IMG/VR virus record: IMGVR_UViG_2698536549_000025
Coordinates: 1 to 14,169 of that record
Reading direction: 5' to 3' (one strand)
Length of the DNA stretch: 14,169 nucleotides
Source: a virus
Taxonomy: Duplodnaviria > Heunggongvirae > Uroviricota > Caudoviricetes
A program made the translations under genes and the position numbers. The notes beneath the pieces are model-generated. The model did not search any database. It saw only the letters and a list, made by a program, of their open reading frames with translations, and was not told where the DNA came from. Below are positions 1-6,088 of this stretch, in pieces; position 1 is the stretch's first letter; every line of letters starts with the position of its first letter.

Positions 1-1230
1 ATGAGCAGAGCACTTAACAAACTGAGTGACACACAGCTAAGGAAAATCAACGGCACACCCGCCCAAAAAACAGCCTTTCTTAATGACGGTGGAAACCTGA
101 GCGTCAGGCATTCAACCAGCGGCCTTTTAACCTGGTATTTCACATACAGGGCCGGAACGGGAAGAGGGACACAACCTGAACGCGTTAAGCTGGGAAATTA
201 TCCCGATCTGAGCCTGAAAGCAGCCAGGGAAAAAGCCGCACAGTGTCGCGCATGGCTGGCTGAGGGGAAAAATCCACGCTATGAACTGAATTACACCATG
301 CAGGAAGCGTTAAAGCCTGCAACGGTTGGCGATGCGCTCACCTACTGGCTTGAGTCGTACGCAAAGGAAAAGCGCACAGATTACGAATCACTGAAAAGCC
401 GGATCAATAAAAACATAATCATCAAAATTGGTGCTATGCCGCTGGATAAATGCGAGCTACGGCACTGGCTGGCCTGTTTTGATCAGGTGGCAAAGCGAAC
501 ACCTGTTACTGCCGGATTCTTGCTACAGACATGCAAACAGGCGCTTAAATTCTGCCGTAGGCGGCGCTATGCAATCAGCAACGTTCTGGACGATCTGAAC
601 GTGGCGGACGTTGGGAAAAAACCGGATATAAGCGAACGTGTCTTAAGCACCAAAGAACTGGGCGAGTTATTGCAGGCGCTGGATAAAAAAATATTTTCTC
701 CTTACTACGTCGCGTTAATCCGCCTCCTGATTGTCTTCGGAGCCAGGACGGTAGAACTGAGGTTATCGGAGATCAGCGAGTGGGATTTTACCGAAATGCT
801 ATGGACCGTTCCGAAGGAGCACAGCAAAACGAAGGTTGCAATATTCCGGCCCATACCGGAAGCGATCCTGCCGTTCGTCACGCGGCTGGTGGACCAGAAC
901 AGGCACACGGGCTTATTACTGGGGGAAGTGAAACAGGAGGCCAGCGTATCGCAGTACGGCAGATTAGCGCACAGGAGGCTAAAACACCCTCAATGGTCAT
1001 TGCATGACATCCGGCGCACCTTTACAACGATGCTGAATGATTTGGGCGTGGATCCTCACGTCGTGGAGCAGCTTACAGGTCATCAGATGCCAGGGATGCA
1101 ACGAGTCTATAACCACTCCCGTTATCTCGATGCGAAACGTGATGCGCTGGATATGTGGACGGAGCGGTTAGGGATACTGGCGGGAGCACATGAAAACGTA
1201 ACCACGCTACCAGTAACCAGAATAAAATAA
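1..1230 (+). CDS. int: Tyrosine recombinase / phage integrase (P4-like, with N-terminal arm-binding-type domain)
   Basis: 409 aa. N-terminus LSDTQLRKI...DGGNLSVRHS...GLLTWYFTYR resembles the P4-type integrase arm-binding domain; C-terminus has HDIRRTF (H-x-x-R) and VYNHSRY (candidate Tyr nucleophile). ATG is at base 1, so upstream sequence and attL are not visible. Confidence 0.9.
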   Translation: MSRALNKLSDTQLRKINGTPAQKTAFLNDGGNLSVRHSTSGLLTWYFTYRAGTGRGTQPERVKLGNYPDLSLKAAREKAAQCRAWLAEGKNPRYELNYTMQEALKPATVGDALTYWLESYAKEKRTDYESLKSRINKNIIIKIGAMPLDKCELRHWLACFDQVAKRTPVTAGFLLQTCKQALKFCRRRRYAISNVLDDLNVADVGKKPDISERVLSTKELGELLQALDKKIFSPYYVALIRLLIVFGARTVELRLSEISEWDFTEMLWTVPKEHSKTKVAIFRPIPEAILPFVTRLVDQNRHTGLLLGEVKQEASVSQYGRLAHRRLKHPQWSLHDIRRTFTTMLNDLGVDPHVVEQLTGHQMPGMQRVYNHSRYLDAKRDALDMWTERLGILAGAHENVTTLPVTRIK

Positions 1231-1283
1231 TTTTTTTCGTGTTTTTTCAGTATGCGCATACTGGATAAGTGCACAGATACAAC

Positions 1284-1310
1284 GTGAAACAATGTGCAAC
1301 AACGTGACAC
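1284..1310 (+). repeat. Three 10-bp-phased direct repeats (aCGTGAAac / aTGTGCAac / aCGTGACAc) between int and alpA
   Basis: GTGAA at 1284, GTGCA at 1294, GTGAC at 1304, exactly 10 bp apart; same motif family as the right-end array at 13811-13850. Confidence 0.5.
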
Positions 1311-1419
1311 AATCACGAACAAGAGGCCAAAAAGAATACAGATTTATAAGTTACTGATTTTTATTGGTTAACTGGTTTTTTATACATTAGCGAATTACGC
1401 GTTAAAGCGTGCGAAAAAA

Positions 1420-1450
1420 GGCATAAAACAAGATTTTATGCCTTTGTATT
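1420..1450 (+). terminator. Weak terminator-like hairpin (GGCATAAAA/TTTTATGCC) followed by TTTGTATT
   Basis: Inverted repeat 1420-1442 with a 5-nt loop and a T-rich tail; the stem is AT-rich, so termination efficiency is uncertain. Confidence 0.3.
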
Positions 1451-1540
1451 AACATGAATTTAAATGATTTTATCCTGATTATTCCTCTTTCTGTAAACCA
1501 TACGACATCAACATTTGCCATTCACCACACTAGCGGGAAC

Positions 1541-1570
1541 AATACGACACAATAAGACACCTGATGACTC
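1541..1570 (+). promoter_or_regulatory. Tandem 10-mer repeats AATACGACAC / AATAAGACAC (plus a degenerate third) just upstream of the alpA ribosome-binding site
   Basis: Direct tandem duplication with one mismatch at 1541-1560, ending about 25 bp before the alpA start; candidate regulator binding site in the alpA control region. Confidence 0.4.
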
Positions 1571-1594
1571 TTTAAGAAACGAAAGGGGGCAATA

Positions 1595-1783
1595 GTGTTA
1601 AGCACTGATCGGTTTATACGTGAAAAAGAATGCGAAAAGCTAACAGGCCTTAGCCGCTCATGCCGCTACCGCCTGGAAAAGGCCGGACAATTCCCATCAC
1701 GTCGTAAACTTGGCGGGCGTTCTGTTGGCTGGTCTTTATCTGAGGTTTTGGCCTGGAAGGATAGCTGCAAGGCAGTTCACTAA
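1595..1783 (+). CDS. alpA: AlpA-family phage transcriptional regulator / excisionase-like helix-turn-helix protein
   Basis: 62 aa with GTG start preceded by AGGGGG 5 nt upstream. The stretch CEKLTGLSRSCRYRLEKAGQFPSRRKLGGRSVGWSLSEVLAW matches the AlpA/Xis-type MerR-like HTH pattern; position directly after int is typical of P4-like elements and Gram-negative PICIs. Confidence 0.8.
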   Translation: MLSTDRFIREKECEKLTGLSRSCRYRLEKAGQFPSRRKLGGRSVGWSLSEVLAWKDSCKAVH

Positions 1784-1923
1784 AAAGACTGGCGGCACAC
1801 AGTCGCCACACATCCACTAATACAGAGATATAACCATGAAGATTGAATATGCGCCCGAACGTGGGCGGGGATTCGTTCGCCCTGGTGAAACTGAAAAACA
1901 ACAAAATTGGGGTTTTTCAGGCA

Positions 1924-1953
1924 TAAAAAAAGCGGCCCCGATATGGAGCCGCC
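1924..1953 (-). terminator. Rho-independent terminator, probably for the minus-strand RHH gene (possibly bidirectional with alpA)
   Basis: Stem GCGGC (1932-1936) / GCCGC (1948-1952) with the A8 run at 1924-1931 on +, which is a U8 run immediately after the hairpin on the minus strand. Confidence 0.45.
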
Positions 1954-2047
1954 TTTCTGAACAATTAACCTGCTGCGCCTTATGTGTATGTGATCCCAAA
2001 CATAAGCACGGGAATGATAGCCGCTATCAGGCTGGTGGGCAATGTAA

Positions 2048-2239
2048 TTACCCTTTGGGTTCTATGCCGCGCCGCTTTAGTTCTGCCCTGGCTAATTCTT
2101 TAAACCAGTTACCAAGGGTTAGACCGTCAGAAGTTGCAGCTTCATTTACTTGTTGGCGTAGCTCTTTACTGATTCTGATTTGGAAGGTTGGAGACCATCC
2201 CTCACCGCGTGGCGATTTATCGCGCTTTAATGTTGACAT
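2048..2239 (-). CDS. Small ribbon-helix-helix (Arc/CopG-like) DNA-binding protein, candidate repressor
   Basis: 63 aa; PTFQIRISKELRQQVNEAATSDGLTLGNWFKELARAELKR fits a beta-strand/helix/helix RHH layout. It is the only convincing minus-strand gene inside the element and is divergent from the main operon. AGGAG lies 12 nt upstream of the ATG, which is a long spacing. Confidence 0.55.
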   Translation of the reverse strand: MSTLKRDKSPRGEGWSPTFQIRISKELRQQVNEAATSDGLTLGNWFKELARAELKRRGIEPKG

Positions 2240-2261
2240 GTACGTACGTAACTCCTATTAT
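2233..2261 (+). promoter_or_regulatory. Near-consensus sigma-70 promoter (TTGACA, 17-bp spacer, TATTAT) driving rightward transcription
   Basis: TTGACA at 2233-2238, 17-bp spacer, TATTAT at 2256-2261; the -35 hexamer overlaps the start codon of the divergent RHH gene. Confidence 0.6.
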
Positions 2262-2282
2262 CATTTCCGTTACGTACGTACA
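2239..2282. promoter_or_regulatory. Operator: perfect 14-bp inverted repeat TGTACGTACGTAAC / GTTACGTACGTACA, each half containing the 10-bp palindrome TACGTACGTA
   Basis: Palindromes at 2241-2250 (inside the promoter spacer) and 2271-2280 (around the predicted +1), 30 bp centre to centre, bracketing the -10 element. Confidence 0.6.
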
Positions 2283-2371
2283 ATATCAGTAGGTACAGTA
2301 AAAAGCAAAGCCCCGCAAGTGTCGTTACCACTCGCAGGGCTTCTAACCAACAACGTAAACTAGGAGCCGTT

Positions 2372-2569
2372 ATGGTTGCCGTAAATCATACTCCACGACT
2401 AGCACACACACAAACGGCCTTTGTGTGGCGTTTTCTGGCACTGAGTGCCGGAGAATCTCAAATCATCCACGTAACCGCCTGGACGGAACGCGAAGCGCGT
2501 AACCGTTGCCCGTCCGGTTGTGTTGCTGTATTTGCCGCCCGTATTCGCCAGGGGTCACATCATGCGTAA
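2372..2569 (+). CDS. Small hypothetical protein, paralog A (FVWRF ... ARIRQG motifs)
   Basis: 65 aa with AGGAG 5 nt upstream of the ATG. Shares the FVWRF and (V/A)ARIRQG segments and its RBS context with the ORF at 2856-3029. Confidence 0.5.
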   Translation: MVAVNHTPRLAHTQTAFVWRFLALSAGESQIIHVTAWTEREARNRCPSGCVAVFAARIRQGSHHA

Positions 2570-2662
2570 AAACCGCTTGCAAAAAATTATAACGGGGCTG
2601 TATGCTTCCCCCGTCGCCCACATGGCGACCGGGTTTAGCAGCCTGAATACTGTAGCGGACAG

Positions 2663-2691
2663 CCGCTTATATTCCGATATGCGGTTTTTTT
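2663..2691 (+). terminator. Terminator-like hairpin plus T7 run inside the A-B interval
   Basis: CCGC (2663-2666) ... GCGG (2681-2684) with internal AT pairing, followed by TTTTTTT at 2685-2691. It lies inside the in-frame ORF 2562-3029, which makes coding status of that interval doubtful. Confidence 0.4.
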
Positions 2692-2855
2692 GTGTCCGTA
2701 AGCCTACCCATACCCGCATTATGGCGGGGCGTAACGGGGGAGCCTTTGCGCTCGCTGGTTCCTACAGTGCCAGTCTGCTAACCCTGTTACGTCTCGCCAC
2801 CCCGTTTAGCAGCGTAGTAGCGAGACTCCTTAAAATTACTGTAGGAGCCTTTCAC

Positions 2856-3029
2856 ATGGCTGTATCCGCACGCCCTTACTTTGTCTGGCGCTTTATGCAG
2901 TGCCAGGAAAAACAAAGATCACTCTTTACCGTCACGGCAGCAACAGAAGGCGAAGCACGCGCCCAGCTGCCGCACGCACATCTTATTTTTGTCGCCCGTA
3001 TTCGCCAGGGGGAAACCTATGCACAATAA
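2856..3029 (+). CDS. Small hypothetical protein, paralog B; could alternatively be the C-terminal part of a longer ORF starting at ATG 2562
   Basis: 58 aa from ATG 2856 with AGGAG 8 nt upstream; MAVSARPYFVWRF...FVARIRQGETYAQ parallels paralog A. No stop separates it from the upstream frame starting at 2562. Confidence 0.45.
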   Translation: MAVSARPYFVWRFMQCQEKQRSLFTVTAATEGEARAQLPHAHLIFVARIRQGETYAQ

Positions 3030-3279
3030 AACCACACCGGACGCAGCCGCCGAAGCCATCAAAACGCTGATGCACGCGCTGATTGATATTTCTGTTATCG
3101 CGGACAGGGCACATAAGCACGCCACCAGCGAAACAGAATATGCCGGGGCTTTCGTTCCTCACTCACTGGCTGTTATGCAATTTAGTGCTGATATGGCACT
3201 GAATGAGGCTAAAACCATCCTGATTACTGATTGTGAAAATGGGGGGGGGTTATGCTTGATGATCGTTTTAATTCCCTGA
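3019..3279 (+). CDS. Hypothetical protein (reading frame passes through the G9 tract)
   Basis: ATG at 3019 with AGGGGG 6 nt upstream, in the same context as ATG 2562 after paralog A. 86 aa, no recognisable motif. Ends at TGA 3277-3279 after the G9 run. Confidence 0.45.
   Translation: MHNKTTPDAAAEAIKTLMHALIDISVIADRAHKHATSETEYAGAFVPHSLAVMQFSADMALNEAKTILITDCENGGGLCLMIVLIP
3241..3249. repeat. G9 homopolymer tract at the junction of two ORFs
   Basis: Nine consecutive G at 3241-3249, immediately upstream of ATG 3252 and inside the 3' end of ORF 3019-3279. Confidence 0.95.
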
Positions 3280-3485
3280 AACAGGAATTTTCCGGCGTTC
3301 CTGATGATGCGGCTGATGCGCTTTCGTCAATGCCAGAACTTATTAGAGCGGCTTTTTTCTTACTTTCCACGAGAGAATATAAATCAACGGGGCTTGATGT
3401 ACTGAATATCGCCGCCGATTATGCGGAATATGTGGCAGAGGCTCGTTACAGAAGAAAATTTCCTGAGGATGTAAGCCATGCGTGA
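3252..3485 (+). CDS. Hypothetical protein
   Basis: 77 aa; ATG 3252 follows the G-rich tract, which can serve as a Shine-Dalgarno sequence; the stop overlaps the next start (ATGCGTGA). Confidence 0.5.
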   Translation: MLDDRFNSLKQEFSGVPDDAADALSSMPELIRAAFFLLSTREYKSTGLDVLNIAADYAEYVAEARYRRKFPEDVSHA

Positions 3486-3711
3486 TATTTACCACGAAAC
3501 AACAGATCGCGTATTTCTTGCACTTTCTCACAGTGAAAATATGATGGAAATATTGCGGATGTGCCTTGAATCCTTTGGCGATAATGAACGTAATGCAAAA
3601 AAAACGCGGATTATTACATCATTAATAACGCTTCTTGAGCCTGTAATAAATGAGTTGCAGGAAATAGAGACATTGCACGACAGATATAACGAACAGCACA
3701 CCGGAGAATAA
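3478..3711 (+). CDS. Hypothetical protein, AT-rich
   Basis: 77 aa, translationally coupled to the upstream ORF. My hand count gives roughly 38% G+C over this ORF, visibly lower than the neighbouring genes. Confidence 0.5.
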   Translation: MRDIYHETTDRVFLALSHSENMMEILRMCLESFGDNERNAKKTRIITSLITLLEPVINELQEIETLHDRYNEQHTGE

Positions 3712-3716
3712 AAATA

Positions 3717-3929
3717 ATGAAACTTAAATATTCTGGCTTAACTGCCAGTGGCAACACTCACCCTAAATTTACGCGCGGTGATATTNNNNNNNNNNNNNNN
3801 NNNNNNNNNNNNNNNNNNNNNNNNNNNNNNNNNNNCGCGCCGCATAACGTGCCCACCAGCAACGCCAGGGCACGGGCAAACATCCAGAAGCTGAAAACCA
3901 TGATTAACGGATTCAGGGGCAAGAAATGA
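3717..3929 (+). CDS. ORF interrupted by the assembly gap; true structure unknown
   Basis: The reading frame spans the N-run at 3786-3835, so length and frame across the gap cannot be trusted. The downstream part ends in an ATGA overlap with the rep start. Confidence 0.2.
   Translation: MKLKYSGLTASGNTHPKFTRGDIXXXXXXXXXXXXXXXXXAPHNVPTSNARARANIQKLKTMINGFRGKK
3786..3835. other. Assembly gap / masked region (50 N)
   Basis: Run of 50 n characters in the sequence. Confidence 1.
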
Positions 3930-5323
3930 AAAGCGCACCGAACTTAAAAAAACAGCCTTACGACAAGATGACCGAAGTCATCATTTTTGCGGGTAGTGAT
4001 GCGTGGGCACATGCGAAACAGTGGCAGGAACAGGACGGGCGACTGGCTGGCGATAATGTGCCTCCCATTGTGCTGGCTGATGATCAACTGGATGAACTGG
4101 CAGACCTGAGAATCATCGACGAGGGGCGCTATTGTGTCCGGCTGTACAAGGCAGGCCACATCAGGCCATCAAATATTAATGCCATTGCGCACAAGCTGGC
4201 GGCGGCGGGCGTAACTGATGCGAATTATTACCCCGAAGGGATACACAGCCAGAAGCGGGAGAACTGGCGCGAATATCTGGAACGGGAGCGGGGGAAAAAG
4301 CCAGGGGAAGAACACCACCAGCGAAAAACCACGCTACCGATGAGCGTTGGATCTGCCGGATACGACACGCAATTAGATTACGTGGTAAAGGGGATTATTC
4401 CGGCATCGTCGCTATGCAGCATATACGGGGCAAGCGGTTCCTATAAATCATTCCTTGCGGGTTCGTGGGCGTGTCACGTTTCCACGGGCCGCCAGTGGGG
4501 AGGCCGCAGGGTGGCGCATGGCGCTGTTCTCTATGTGGTTGGTGAAGGCGGTATCGGCGTTCCGCGTCGTGTAAAAGCCTGGGAGGTTGTGCACGGTGAG
4601 CAGGTGAAAAATCTGTATCTGGTAAACCGTCCAGTTTTTCCGGCTGTCCCGCTTGATGTTGATGAACTGGTTATCGCTGCCCGTCAGGTGGAGCGGGAAA
4701 CGGGTAAACCTGTACGCATGATTATTCTTGATACTCTGGCGCGTTGCTTTGGTGGCAATGATGAAAATGATTCCCGTGATATGGGGGCGTTTATCCGTGG
4801 GTGTGACGAGCTTAAACGGCGCACAGGGGCCACGGTGCTGGTGGTTCACCATTCCGGCAAGGATGAGACGAAAGGCGCGCGCGGTTCCAGTGCATTTCGT
4901 GCTTCGCTGGATGCTGAATACCGGATACGCAGGGAGGACGCAGGAAGCGAAGCGCTGGTTATCTCATGCACCAAAATGAAGGACGCGGAGGAACTCAAAG
5001 AGGCTGCCTATGATTTGCGGGTGGTGGAGCTTTTTACCGACGCTGACGGGGAGTTAATCACGTCGCTGGTGGTGGTGGATAAGCCGCGCCCTCCCGTTGA
5101 ACTGGAGCGCATCGAGGAGGCAGGCAACAAGACGGAAAACCATACCGCACTATGGGGGTGCATCCGTTCACGCACACAGAACGGCGACAAGTGCACGATC
5201 CCGCTGTTACGTGATGACATGAAACGGCTTGGGTATGACGTGAAAAATATGCGGCGATGGTTAGCCAAACTGGAAAAAGACGCCGTGATTTACATTGATG
5301 GTGATGATGTAGGACCACTGTAA
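3926..5323 (+). CDS. Replication initiator with RecA-like AAA_25 ATPase core (RepA/DnaB-like helicase family); candidate pri-rep equivalent
   Basis: 465 aa. Walker A-like YGASGSYKSF, Walker B-like RMIILDTL and VLVVHHSGKDE are typical of AAA_25-type RepA-like ATPases; N-terminal (~150 aa) and C-terminal (~120 aa) extra domains. AGGGGC precedes the ATG; iterons follow the stop codon. Confidence 0.85.
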   Translation: MKSAPNLKKQPYDKMTEVIIFAGSDAWAHAKQWQEQDGRLAGDNVPPIVLADDQLDELADLRIIDEGRYCVRLYKAGHIRPSNINAIAHKLAAAGVTDANYYPEGIHSQKRENWREYLERERGKKPGEEHHQRKTTLPMSVGSAGYDTQLDYVVKGIIPASSLCSIYGASGSYKSFLAGSWACHVSTGRQWGGRRVAHGAVLYVVGEGGIGVPRRVKAWEVVHGEQVKNLYLVNRPVFPAVPLDVDELVIAARQVERETGKPVRMIILDTLARCFGGNDENDSRDMGAFIRGCDELKRRTGATVLVVHHSGKDETKGARGSSAFRASLDAEYRIRREDAGSEALVISCTKMKDAEELKEAAYDLRVVELFTDADGELITSLVVVDKPRPPVELERIEEAGNKTENHTALWGCIRSRTQNGDKCTIPLLRDDMKRLGYDVKNMRRWLAKLEKDAVIYIDGDDVGPL

Positions 5324-5525
5324 AAAGTGAGTAGCAAAAGTGAGTAATGGTGAGGTTTTTACAAAATATTAACACGATTACTCACTTTCTCACCTGTATA
5401 CATGCTCAAAAGTGAGGAGTAAAAAAATGCTTATGAAACATGCATATATAAAACACGAAAATCTCAAGCGAGACGAAGTGAGACGCGTTAAAAAGTGAGG
5501 CGTAAAAGTGAGCGCGAGTGAGGAG
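5322..5525 (+). repeat. Iteron array (core AGTGAG, mostly AAAAGTGAG) with AT-rich spacers; candidate origin of replication
   Basis: Direct copies at about 5322, 5336, 5349, 5408, 5475, 5491, 5504 and 5517 and inverted copies at 5381 and 5389 (CTCACT/CTCACC); AT-rich stretches at 5355-5380 and 5420-5460; immediately 3' of the rep gene. Confidence 0.65.
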
Positions 5526-5534
5526 ATAACCAAA

Positions 5535-5777
5535 ATGCGCAGAGACAGAACAGCGCCAAAATATAAAGCGTTAGACATGACAGAGCACGCTTTAAAGGTG
5601 GCAATCAGAACGATAGACCGCCACGCGGGGGAAGGATACGCGAAGGAACATCCCGACCTGATAAGCGCATTCATGACCACAGCGGCGGCAAACTTTGCCA
5701 CGCTGACAGAACGGGAGATTGCCGAAGCGGAACAGGTAACAACAATCAACGTTAAAACCGGAGAGGTGGAATCATGA
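5535..5777 (+). CDS. Hypothetical protein (the track's GTG start at 5508 lies inside the iteron array; ATG 5535 with GAGGAG 9 nt upstream is preferred)
   Basis: About 80 aa, acidic and Ala-rich, no recognisable motif; the stop overlaps the next start. Confidence 0.5.
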   Translation: MRRDRTAPKYKALDMTEHALKVAIRTIDRHAGEGYAKEHPDLISAFMTTAAANFATLTEREIAEAEQVTTINVKTGEVES

Positions 5778-6079
5778 GCGAACCAAAATTTGGTGAAAAA
5801 TTTTACAAGCACAACGGACGGATCACGATTCTGCAAATAAGCGCAGCTACACCAGGCTGGTGGGTTGAAACAGACGAAGGATCCTCACCCGTGGCATCAT
5901 GGGCGCTTTGTGTGCTTAGTTACCCTGACCGCGATGTGTATCAGGATATTCTGCCTGTGATATCCACAGACAAAGGCATGAAACCCGTAGACATCAAAAG
6001 CATGGGTTTTCAGTGCGTAATGCTCACTGAAAAAATGATGGAAGAGATGAAAAAGAACAACGCCGGATCGCTTCACTGA
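5774..6079 (+). CDS. Hypothetical protein
   Basis: 101 aa, ATGA overlap with the upstream ORF; no motif recognised. Confidence 0.5.
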   Translation: MSEPKFGEKFYKHNGRITILQISAATPGWWVETDEGSSPVASWALCVLSYPDRDVYQDILPVISTDKGMKPVDIKSMGFQCVMLTEKMMEEMKKNNAGSLH

Positions 6080-6088
6080 GGTGGCAAT

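Follow-up and report, generated by a model that had tools for sequence, protein, structure and literature searches.

The window analysed here is a stretch of 14,169 nucleotides (IMG/VR virus record IMGVR_UViG_2698536549_000025, positions 1 to 14,169). It begins with an integrase gene (1-1230), followed by Icd-like genes, three small ORFs, a DUF4222 gene, a RepA-family helicase gene (3926-5323) and an SSB gene, and then by genes for the major capsid protein, the portal protein and the large terminase. E. coli chromosomal islands with an integrase, RepA helicase, major capsid, portal and large terminase matched the window with 94% coverage and 97.7% identity. PICIs and capsid-forming PICIs (cf-PICIs) are recognized by an integrase, an AlpA-type regulator, a replication module, capsid, portal and terminase genes of their own, the absence of tail and lysis genes, and a size of about 10-15 kb. 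Judged on its gene layout, the window appears to be a phage satellite of E. coli of the PICI or cf-PICI type, and its order of genes from integrase to terminase is the same as in EcCICFT073 (PMC6092414) and EcCIEDL933 (bioRxiv 10.1101/2025.02.11.637232, 10.1101/2022.09.08.507074). The small-ORF module with its homopolymeric G tract was also found in CFT073 (island EcCICFT073), where the tract has eight G (G8) and the genes are split, and in a cf-PICI-type island of E. coli O157:H7 SS52, where it has seven (G7) and the genes are fused. The tract occurs in classical PICIs, EcCICFT073 among them, as well as in capsid-forming ones. The available text of the EcCICFT073 and EcCIEDL933 papers does not mention it, and there the small ORFs between alpA and the replication gene have no assigned function (PMC6092414; PMC6739421). 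Upstream of the module, a 175-aa ORF on the + strand (1836-2363) had no match in Pfam, PHROG or PADLOC. The - strand has a strong hairpin at 2343-2307 that resembles a terminator, and relatives annotate small - strand genes of the YlcI/YnfO family around this position; the 175-aa ORF is perhaps not a true gene.

Within the early operon, the tract has the Icd-like genes on one side and the DUF4222 and RepA replication genes on the other, and the operon genes are all on the + strand. The Icd-like gene just upstream (2520-3029) matched Icd-like and 'transcriptional repressor' PHROG families over residues 116-165, and relatives annotate its counterpart as 'host cell division inhibitor Icd-like protein'. 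The GTG at 2520 is probably too early a start, with the true start downstream. The TAA of this gene (3027-3029) overlaps the start of ORF1 by 11 nt (ATGCACAATAA), and a GGGGG run at 3008-3012, 6 nt 5' of the ORF1 start (CCAGGGGGAAACCTATG), resembles a Shine-Dalgarno sequence. A G run of the same style was found 5' of the stand-alone homologue of ORF2 in other islands (CAGGGGGGTAAACATG), and these runs are the putative ribosome-binding motif of the operon. ORF3 (3478-3711; 77 aa; phrog_2196) starts within the end of ORF2, and its start overlaps the ORF2 stop by 8 nt in an ATGCGTGA arrangement (3478-3485), which shows the normal junction type of this operon. ORF1, ORF2 and ORF3 were compared with one another, and no paralogy was found. 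The remainder of the operon is formed by the DUF4222 gene (3717-3929) and the helicase gene. The DUF4222 gene is interrupted by 50 N at 3786-3835; it is 300 nt long in relatives versus 213 nt, N run included, in the window, and the N run replaces about 137 nt. The run looks like a scaffold gap, which would mean that the window comes from a draft assembly.

At the junction itself, a T at 3240 is followed by nine G at 3241-3249 (G9), TT at 3250-3251 and the ATG of ORF2 at 3252-3254 (...GAAAAT GGGGGGGGG TTATGCTTGATGATCG...). The tract is thus placed as the preliminary description had it, inside the 3' end of ORF1 (3019-3279) and 2 nt 5' of the start of ORF2 (3252-3485), and this is the site at which length is hypervariable among relatives. 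G9 codes for Gly-Gly-Gly at the C-terminal end of the ORF1 core (residues 1-77, ...ADCENGGG) and may double as a G-rich ribosome-binding stretch just 5' of ORF2. In the G9 allele the ORF1 product has 86 aa and ends in ...CENGGGLCLMIVLIP (in a longer stretch, ...ADCENGGGLCLMIVLIP); because of the tract length, its last nine residues, LCLMIVLIP, are read out of frame from ORF2 sequence. ORF2 (77 aa, MLDDRFN...) has its own ATG. Relative to ORF1 it is read in the -1 frame (3252-3019 = 233), and with a tenth G the two therefore become a single protein of 155 aa. A fusion of about this size had been predicted by frame arithmetic; G10 alleles occur in nature and code for precisely this protein, P0005 (...CENGGGVMRDD...) among them. 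A TGA at 3257-3259, within ATGCTTGA, is out of frame for ORF1 in the G9 allele and serves as the ORF1 stop in G8 and G11 alleles, which gives an 8-nt stop/start overlap. The G9 run alone was statistically unremarkable, because 24 of 200 dinucleotide-preserving shuffles of the window also contained a run of nine G or C (mean 0.15). What goes beyond chance is a G tract at the homologous position, varying in length, in more than 140 related loci.

ORF1, the N-half, matched phrog_5146 over residues 1-73, and ORF2, the C-half, matched phrog_24341 over residues 1-77 of 77; both are families of unknown function. Profile searches with the two proteins gave no match in Pfam, NCBIfam, PADLOC or PDB sequences. 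The pN/pS ratio was about 0.4-0.5 for each half, a rough value from ungapped, tract-anchored alignments that is distorted by N-half indel variants and alternative C-half C-termini and documents constraint weakly. The hypothetical G10 fusion matched phrog_2512 from end to end (1-154/154, E = 6e-89), and the products of the window fit the two half-length families, with no single window polypeptide matching phrog_2512 over its full length. More than 100 clusters of fused proteins of 154 or 155 aa were found in E. coli.

The wider comparison nonetheless favours two genes. An exhaustive HMMER search of 1.84 billion representatives, with the natural G10 protein P0005 as the query, returned only 50 relatives. 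The distant ones (43-56% identity) were for the most part either N-halves alone (73-95 aa, without a Gly run) or C-halves alone (75-77 aa), the latter starting exactly at the Met that follows the tract. Each half was also found with other partners. In some E. coli islands the C-half lies behind an unrelated upstream gene that ends in ...VIQGGKHA at the same TGA in ATGCGTGA, and there it is preceded by CAGGGGGGTAAAC. In other islands the N-half is followed by a different downstream gene, and the junction (AAT GGC GGG GGC GAT TAT GCG AAA TAA) is not slippery. Since distant relatives and islands with other partners carry each half separately, the two-gene arrangement is probably the ancestral state, and the locus does not appear to be simply one gene broken in two. 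ORF2 was intact in all tract classes except at one Shigella locus, and its own start codon, used by the stand-alone homologues, suggests that it is translated independently of ORF1.

Further joins were seen at this position. In the IMG/VR loci L050-L061 the C-half follows an unrelated gene of about 120 aa (MHNLSISDLNS...), which contains ...CERLRDDCCFG..., resembling the MRDDRFN start of the C-half. The 167-aa protein P0128 looks like this gene fused to the C-half at the shared motif. A comparison of P0165 (144 aa) with P0148 (77 aa) indicated that a distant N-half relative (...AILEADIKNAPGDNEYE) is also found fused to a different downstream sequence (...AILEADIKNAPGIMSMNNVQELK...). Fusion at this position may therefore not be confined to the poly-G lineage of E. 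coli.

The preliminary description had called for tract lengths to be compared in related islands. Collections were scanned with a frame-agnostic pattern (GATTGTGAAAAT-GGGG-N(0-9)-TTATGCKTGATGATCG), and all fetched loci were pooled and duplicates removed, which left 141 non-redundant loci. The tract in these loci was 4 to 12 bases long. The most frequent length was 8 bases (64 loci), followed by 9 (31 loci) and 7 (30 loci); lengths of 10, 11, 12 and 4 bases occurred in 5, 4, 4 and 3 loci. By frame, 27% of the loci were fused (4, 7 or 10 bases), 48% had 8 or 11 bases and 25% had 9 or 12 bases, all of these frequencies being approximate because the loci are phylogenetically non-independent. The scan of IMG/VR alone (n = 90) gave 22, 39, 19, 4, 3 and 3 loci with 7, 8, 9, 10, 11 and 12 bases, and the scan of metagenome contigs, which are largely SPAdes-style NODE assemblies (n = 53), gave 10, 28, 12, 1, 1 and 1. 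Rough counts from BLAST identity bands in complete E. coli genomes were about 356 G7, 178 G8, 166 G9 and 19 G10; the top band of these counts is contaminated by about 240 shortened 100%-identity matches from islands with the C-half only, some genomes have several islands, and G7 is inflated by O157:H7 clones. Roughly 890 complete E. coli genomes have the junction. The search of a genome-contig collection for related loci returned a single locus, from Shigella flexneri.

The length of the tract differed even between nearly identical copies of the locus. The first three E. coli chromosomes compared had G11, G8 and G9 at the homologous site, and the G11 copy was 99.7% identical to the window. The window haplotype was found as G9 in the window itself and in AP027256 (100% identical over 221 nt), and as G11 in CP043478. 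The 154-aa fused proteins P0001 and P0003, with the G7 junction ...CENGGVMLDD..., were 99% identical to the fusion predicted from the window. Among 25 flank haplotypes (391 nt identical, each seen at least twice), 11 had tracts of differing length. The tract thus evolves much more quickly than the sequence around it, as is characteristic of slipped-strand mispairing. It is a genuine hotspot of slippage, a frameshift-prone site being one of the possibilities raised at the outset, and strand slippage is the probable mechanism. Contingency loci are marked by a homopolymer of at least about 7 bases in or beside a coding sequence, and by a length polymorphism that exceeds flanking substitutions among close relatives, and both were found here. 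Within clones, by contrast with the differences between clones, tract lengths were reproducible. In a spread sample, 24 genomes, mostly O157:H7, all had G7 and one CDS, five CFT073-like genomes all had G8, and a Nissle 1917 genome had the fused form. As a separate observation, the complete genome AP027256.1 has two islands with an identical G9 module (L236, 1772147-1775407; L237, 1260260-1263520), and their upstream neighbours differ, an Ash-family gene in one versus small ORFs in the other.

The preliminary description had also considered that the tract might be an assembly artefact splitting one gene, and this idea did not hold. If an error had split a single gene, the frameshift should be private and the homologues uniformly in frame; 73% of the related loci were out of frame, and the two-gene state with G8 was the commonest. 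In the CFT073 reference genome the G8 tract separates two annotated CDS that overlap by 8 nt. We consider it very unlikely that the count of nine in the window is itself a sequencing or assembly error and that the true tract is G8 or G10. Length errors in homopolymers are common on some sequencing platforms, and a small doubt about the count persists because the assembly is gapped, with its 50 N lying about 540 nt downstream of the tract. However, the exact 86-aa product of the G9 frame of the window haplotype was on record in 191 blocks of a public assembly collection, complete genomes included, and it occurred twice in one complete genome. G9 also made up 22% of the 143 pattern-matched loci, metagenome contigs included, and the reproducible lengths within clones came from genomes sequenced by different laboratories.

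The length of the tract decides which products the pair can make. Translation of the alleles gave ORF1 ending in ...NGGGYA (G8) or ...NGGGGYA (G11) together with ORF2, ORF1 ending in ...GGGLCLMIVLIP together with ORF2, or a fused protein of 154 or 155 aa. In our judgement G9 is probably a natural allele of a slippage-prone tract that joins two ancestrally separate, translationally coupled genes, and the variation in length is largely tolerated. On the simplest reading, the long homopolymer arose when Gly codons ran together with a G-rich ribosome-binding site of the ordinary kind, and the tract would then have two roles, as the Gly-rich C-terminus of the upstream protein and as the ribosome-binding stretch for the downstream gene. 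Slipped-strand mispairing would alter its length and move the pair between overlapping, extended and fused forms. With 8 or 11 bases, the mode, the TGA of ORF1 would overlap the ORF2 start (ATGCGTGA), the standard coupled junction of the operon and the same 8-nt arrangement as at the ORF2/ORF3 junction. With 9 or 12 bases, as in the window, ORF1 would run 27 nt into ORF2 and gain a short hydrophobic tail, and ORF2 would still be made from its own ATG. With 4, 7 or 10 bases, a single fused protein of 154-155 aa would result. The window would thus hold two genes with a slip of +1 relative to the modal allele and not a broken gene. What the sequences themselves show is that the tract is polymorphic, that the alleles fall into three classes, and that the two halves are modular and remain intact.

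Whether the variation is tolerated or used was judged from the distribution and the conservation of the alleles. Tract lengths in the 141 loci had a single peak at 8, lengths of 7 and 9 were about equally frequent, and no three-base periodicity was seen. Because of this, and because both halves stay intact, the variation looks tolerated and is probably not used as a switch; the case for near-neutrality is drawn from how the lengths are distributed. Interrupted alleles that lock the locus were found in the split state (GGGGGTGG, GGGGTGGG) and, as judged from ...CENGWVM..., in the fused state (GGGTGGG). An AlphaFold model of low confidence, built on a shallow alignment of 39 sequences (pLDDT 58, pTM 0.43), had two helical halves and a low-confidence linker at residues 75-99. 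Taken with the intact halves, the unimodal lengths and the locked alleles in both states, this two-halves model suggests that neither the covalent linkage nor the tail of ORF1 is of much importance. A stretch of roughly 55 nt that includes the tract (about 3226-3290; -15 to +40) was almost invariant in nucleotides across 49 flank haplotypes, and the rest of ORF1 and ORF2 was diverse, with N-half and C-half variants in different combinations. A conserved joint for module exchange by recombination and a constraint on translation initiation are candidate explanations for this stretch, which may also have a function of another kind.

The same data bear on an adaptive reading, in which the tract is kept since stochastic switching between separate and fused proteins, or a changed coupling to the replication genes, lends the satellite more than one behaviour, such as a different response to helper phages or a different interference. 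We regard this as unlikely, although several findings speak for it. All three frame classes are common, identical haplotypes have switched repeatedly, and the tract was uninterrupted in about 92% of loci, while a sister module uses synonymous, non-slippery Gly codons (GGCGGGGGC). The near-invariant flanks amid diverse gene sequence fit as well, and so does the position in an operon that also holds the replication genes of the island; the genes of EcCICFT073 are activated by AlpA (PMC6092414). However, the lengths had neither a three-base periodicity nor a bimodal distribution, the locked alleles occur in both states, and the tract is no purer than the generally invariant 55 nt around it would lead one to expect. 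Switching is also probably not fast on clonal timescales, because the sampled clones, G7 in the mostly O157:H7 genomes and G8 in the CFT073-like ones, were uniform in tract length. Neither protein had a family, defence-system or PDB match that would point to such a use, and a full-text literature search found no report of a slippage hotspot in PICIs or capsid-forming PICIs and no paper linking PICIs with homopolymeric tracts. The more specific proposal, that the poly-G is a true contingency locus acting as a stochastic fusion/fission switch on a PICI, with forms that differ in their response to or interference with helper phage, is in our view rather improbable. If it were true, a satellite population would be a mixture of islands that make the proteins separately or fused, or that couple the replication genes differently.

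A recoding site was also considered, at which a -1 ribosomal frameshift on G GGG GGG, or slippage of RNA polymerase, would give some fused protein from the G9 allele. Transcription and translation are both known to slip on homopolymer runs, and how efficiently this happens on G runs in E. coli is uncertain. ORF2 does lie in the -1 frame, the run formally fits X XXY YYZ, and the fused protein is a viable natural product. However, the relatives fall into all three frame classes (27%, 48% and 25%), so there is no fixed programmed shift. The downstream RNA had no stable structure (3225-3330, MFE z-score 0.06 versus shuffles), and ORF2 has a start codon of its own. We hold recoding to be extremely unlikely, and retain the tolerated slippage of a coupled gene junction as the preferred explanation. 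Among other roles, a G-quadruplex was ruled out, since a single G run cannot form an intramolecular quadruplex, and an origin or primase site was considered and found to be without supporting evidence.

The locus was compared with known systems. Poly-G and poly-C contingency loci are known from Neisseria, Haemophilus, Campylobacter and Bordetella (for example PMC5084427, PMC8355987 and PMC1891110). Like these, the present tract is a coding homopolymer in which slippage shifts the frame and which is polymorphic among close relatives. In contrast to them, the change of frame moves two intact genes between forms instead of silencing one, the host, E. coli, is proficient in mismatch repair, and the tract is stable within the sampled clones. 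Another parallel is the homopolymer-mediated switching of C-terminal sequence among the simple sequence repeats of Helicobacter canadensis (PMC2823697), where a tract near the 3' end of a gene alters the C-terminal tail and the protein is kept; here, however, one frame also fuses the product of the next gene, and the locus is on a phage satellite. The G8 allele, with its 8-nt ATGCGTGA overlap, the 11-nt overlap upstream and the Shine-Dalgarno-like G runs, resembles coupled overlapping genes in phage operons. It differs from ordinary pairs of this kind in that the ribosome-binding run is merged with Gly codons into a slippery homopolymer, and this is why one junction of the operon is unstable. 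Programmed -1 pairs, such as the tail assembly chaperone G/GT and dnaX, share two overlapping frames, a slippery run and the possibility of a short and a fused product, but here the frame relation was not conserved, a stimulatory structure was not found, and the downstream ORF begins at a start codon of its own.

Slippage hotspots in homopolymers are a familiar phenomenon, yet unusual for E. coli. The one described here lies where two coupled genes meet in phage satellites of E. coli. PICIs and cf-PICIs are under active study for their part in gene transfer, and reference islands differ at this junction, EcCICFT073 being split versus the fused O157:H7 island, which matters for comparative and engineering work. 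Annotation pipelines call the locus one gene or two according to tract length, and one homology group is thereby spread over three PHROG families. Should the two forms, fused and split, have different activities, the tract would act as an inbuilt source of diversity in the early operon of the satellite; if they do not, it would be a clear natural example of gene fusion and fission tolerated at a domain linker. The sequence comparisons have as yet given no sign that tract variation matters to the island.

A second G run was noted at 11298-11304, G7 in GACGGGGTGGGGGGGCGTTTTCAGG, in an apparently non-coding stretch 5' of the gene at 11403. In the few relatives that have it, its length varied (G5 once, G6 five times, G7 once); it is a possible further site of slippage, close to the packaging genes.
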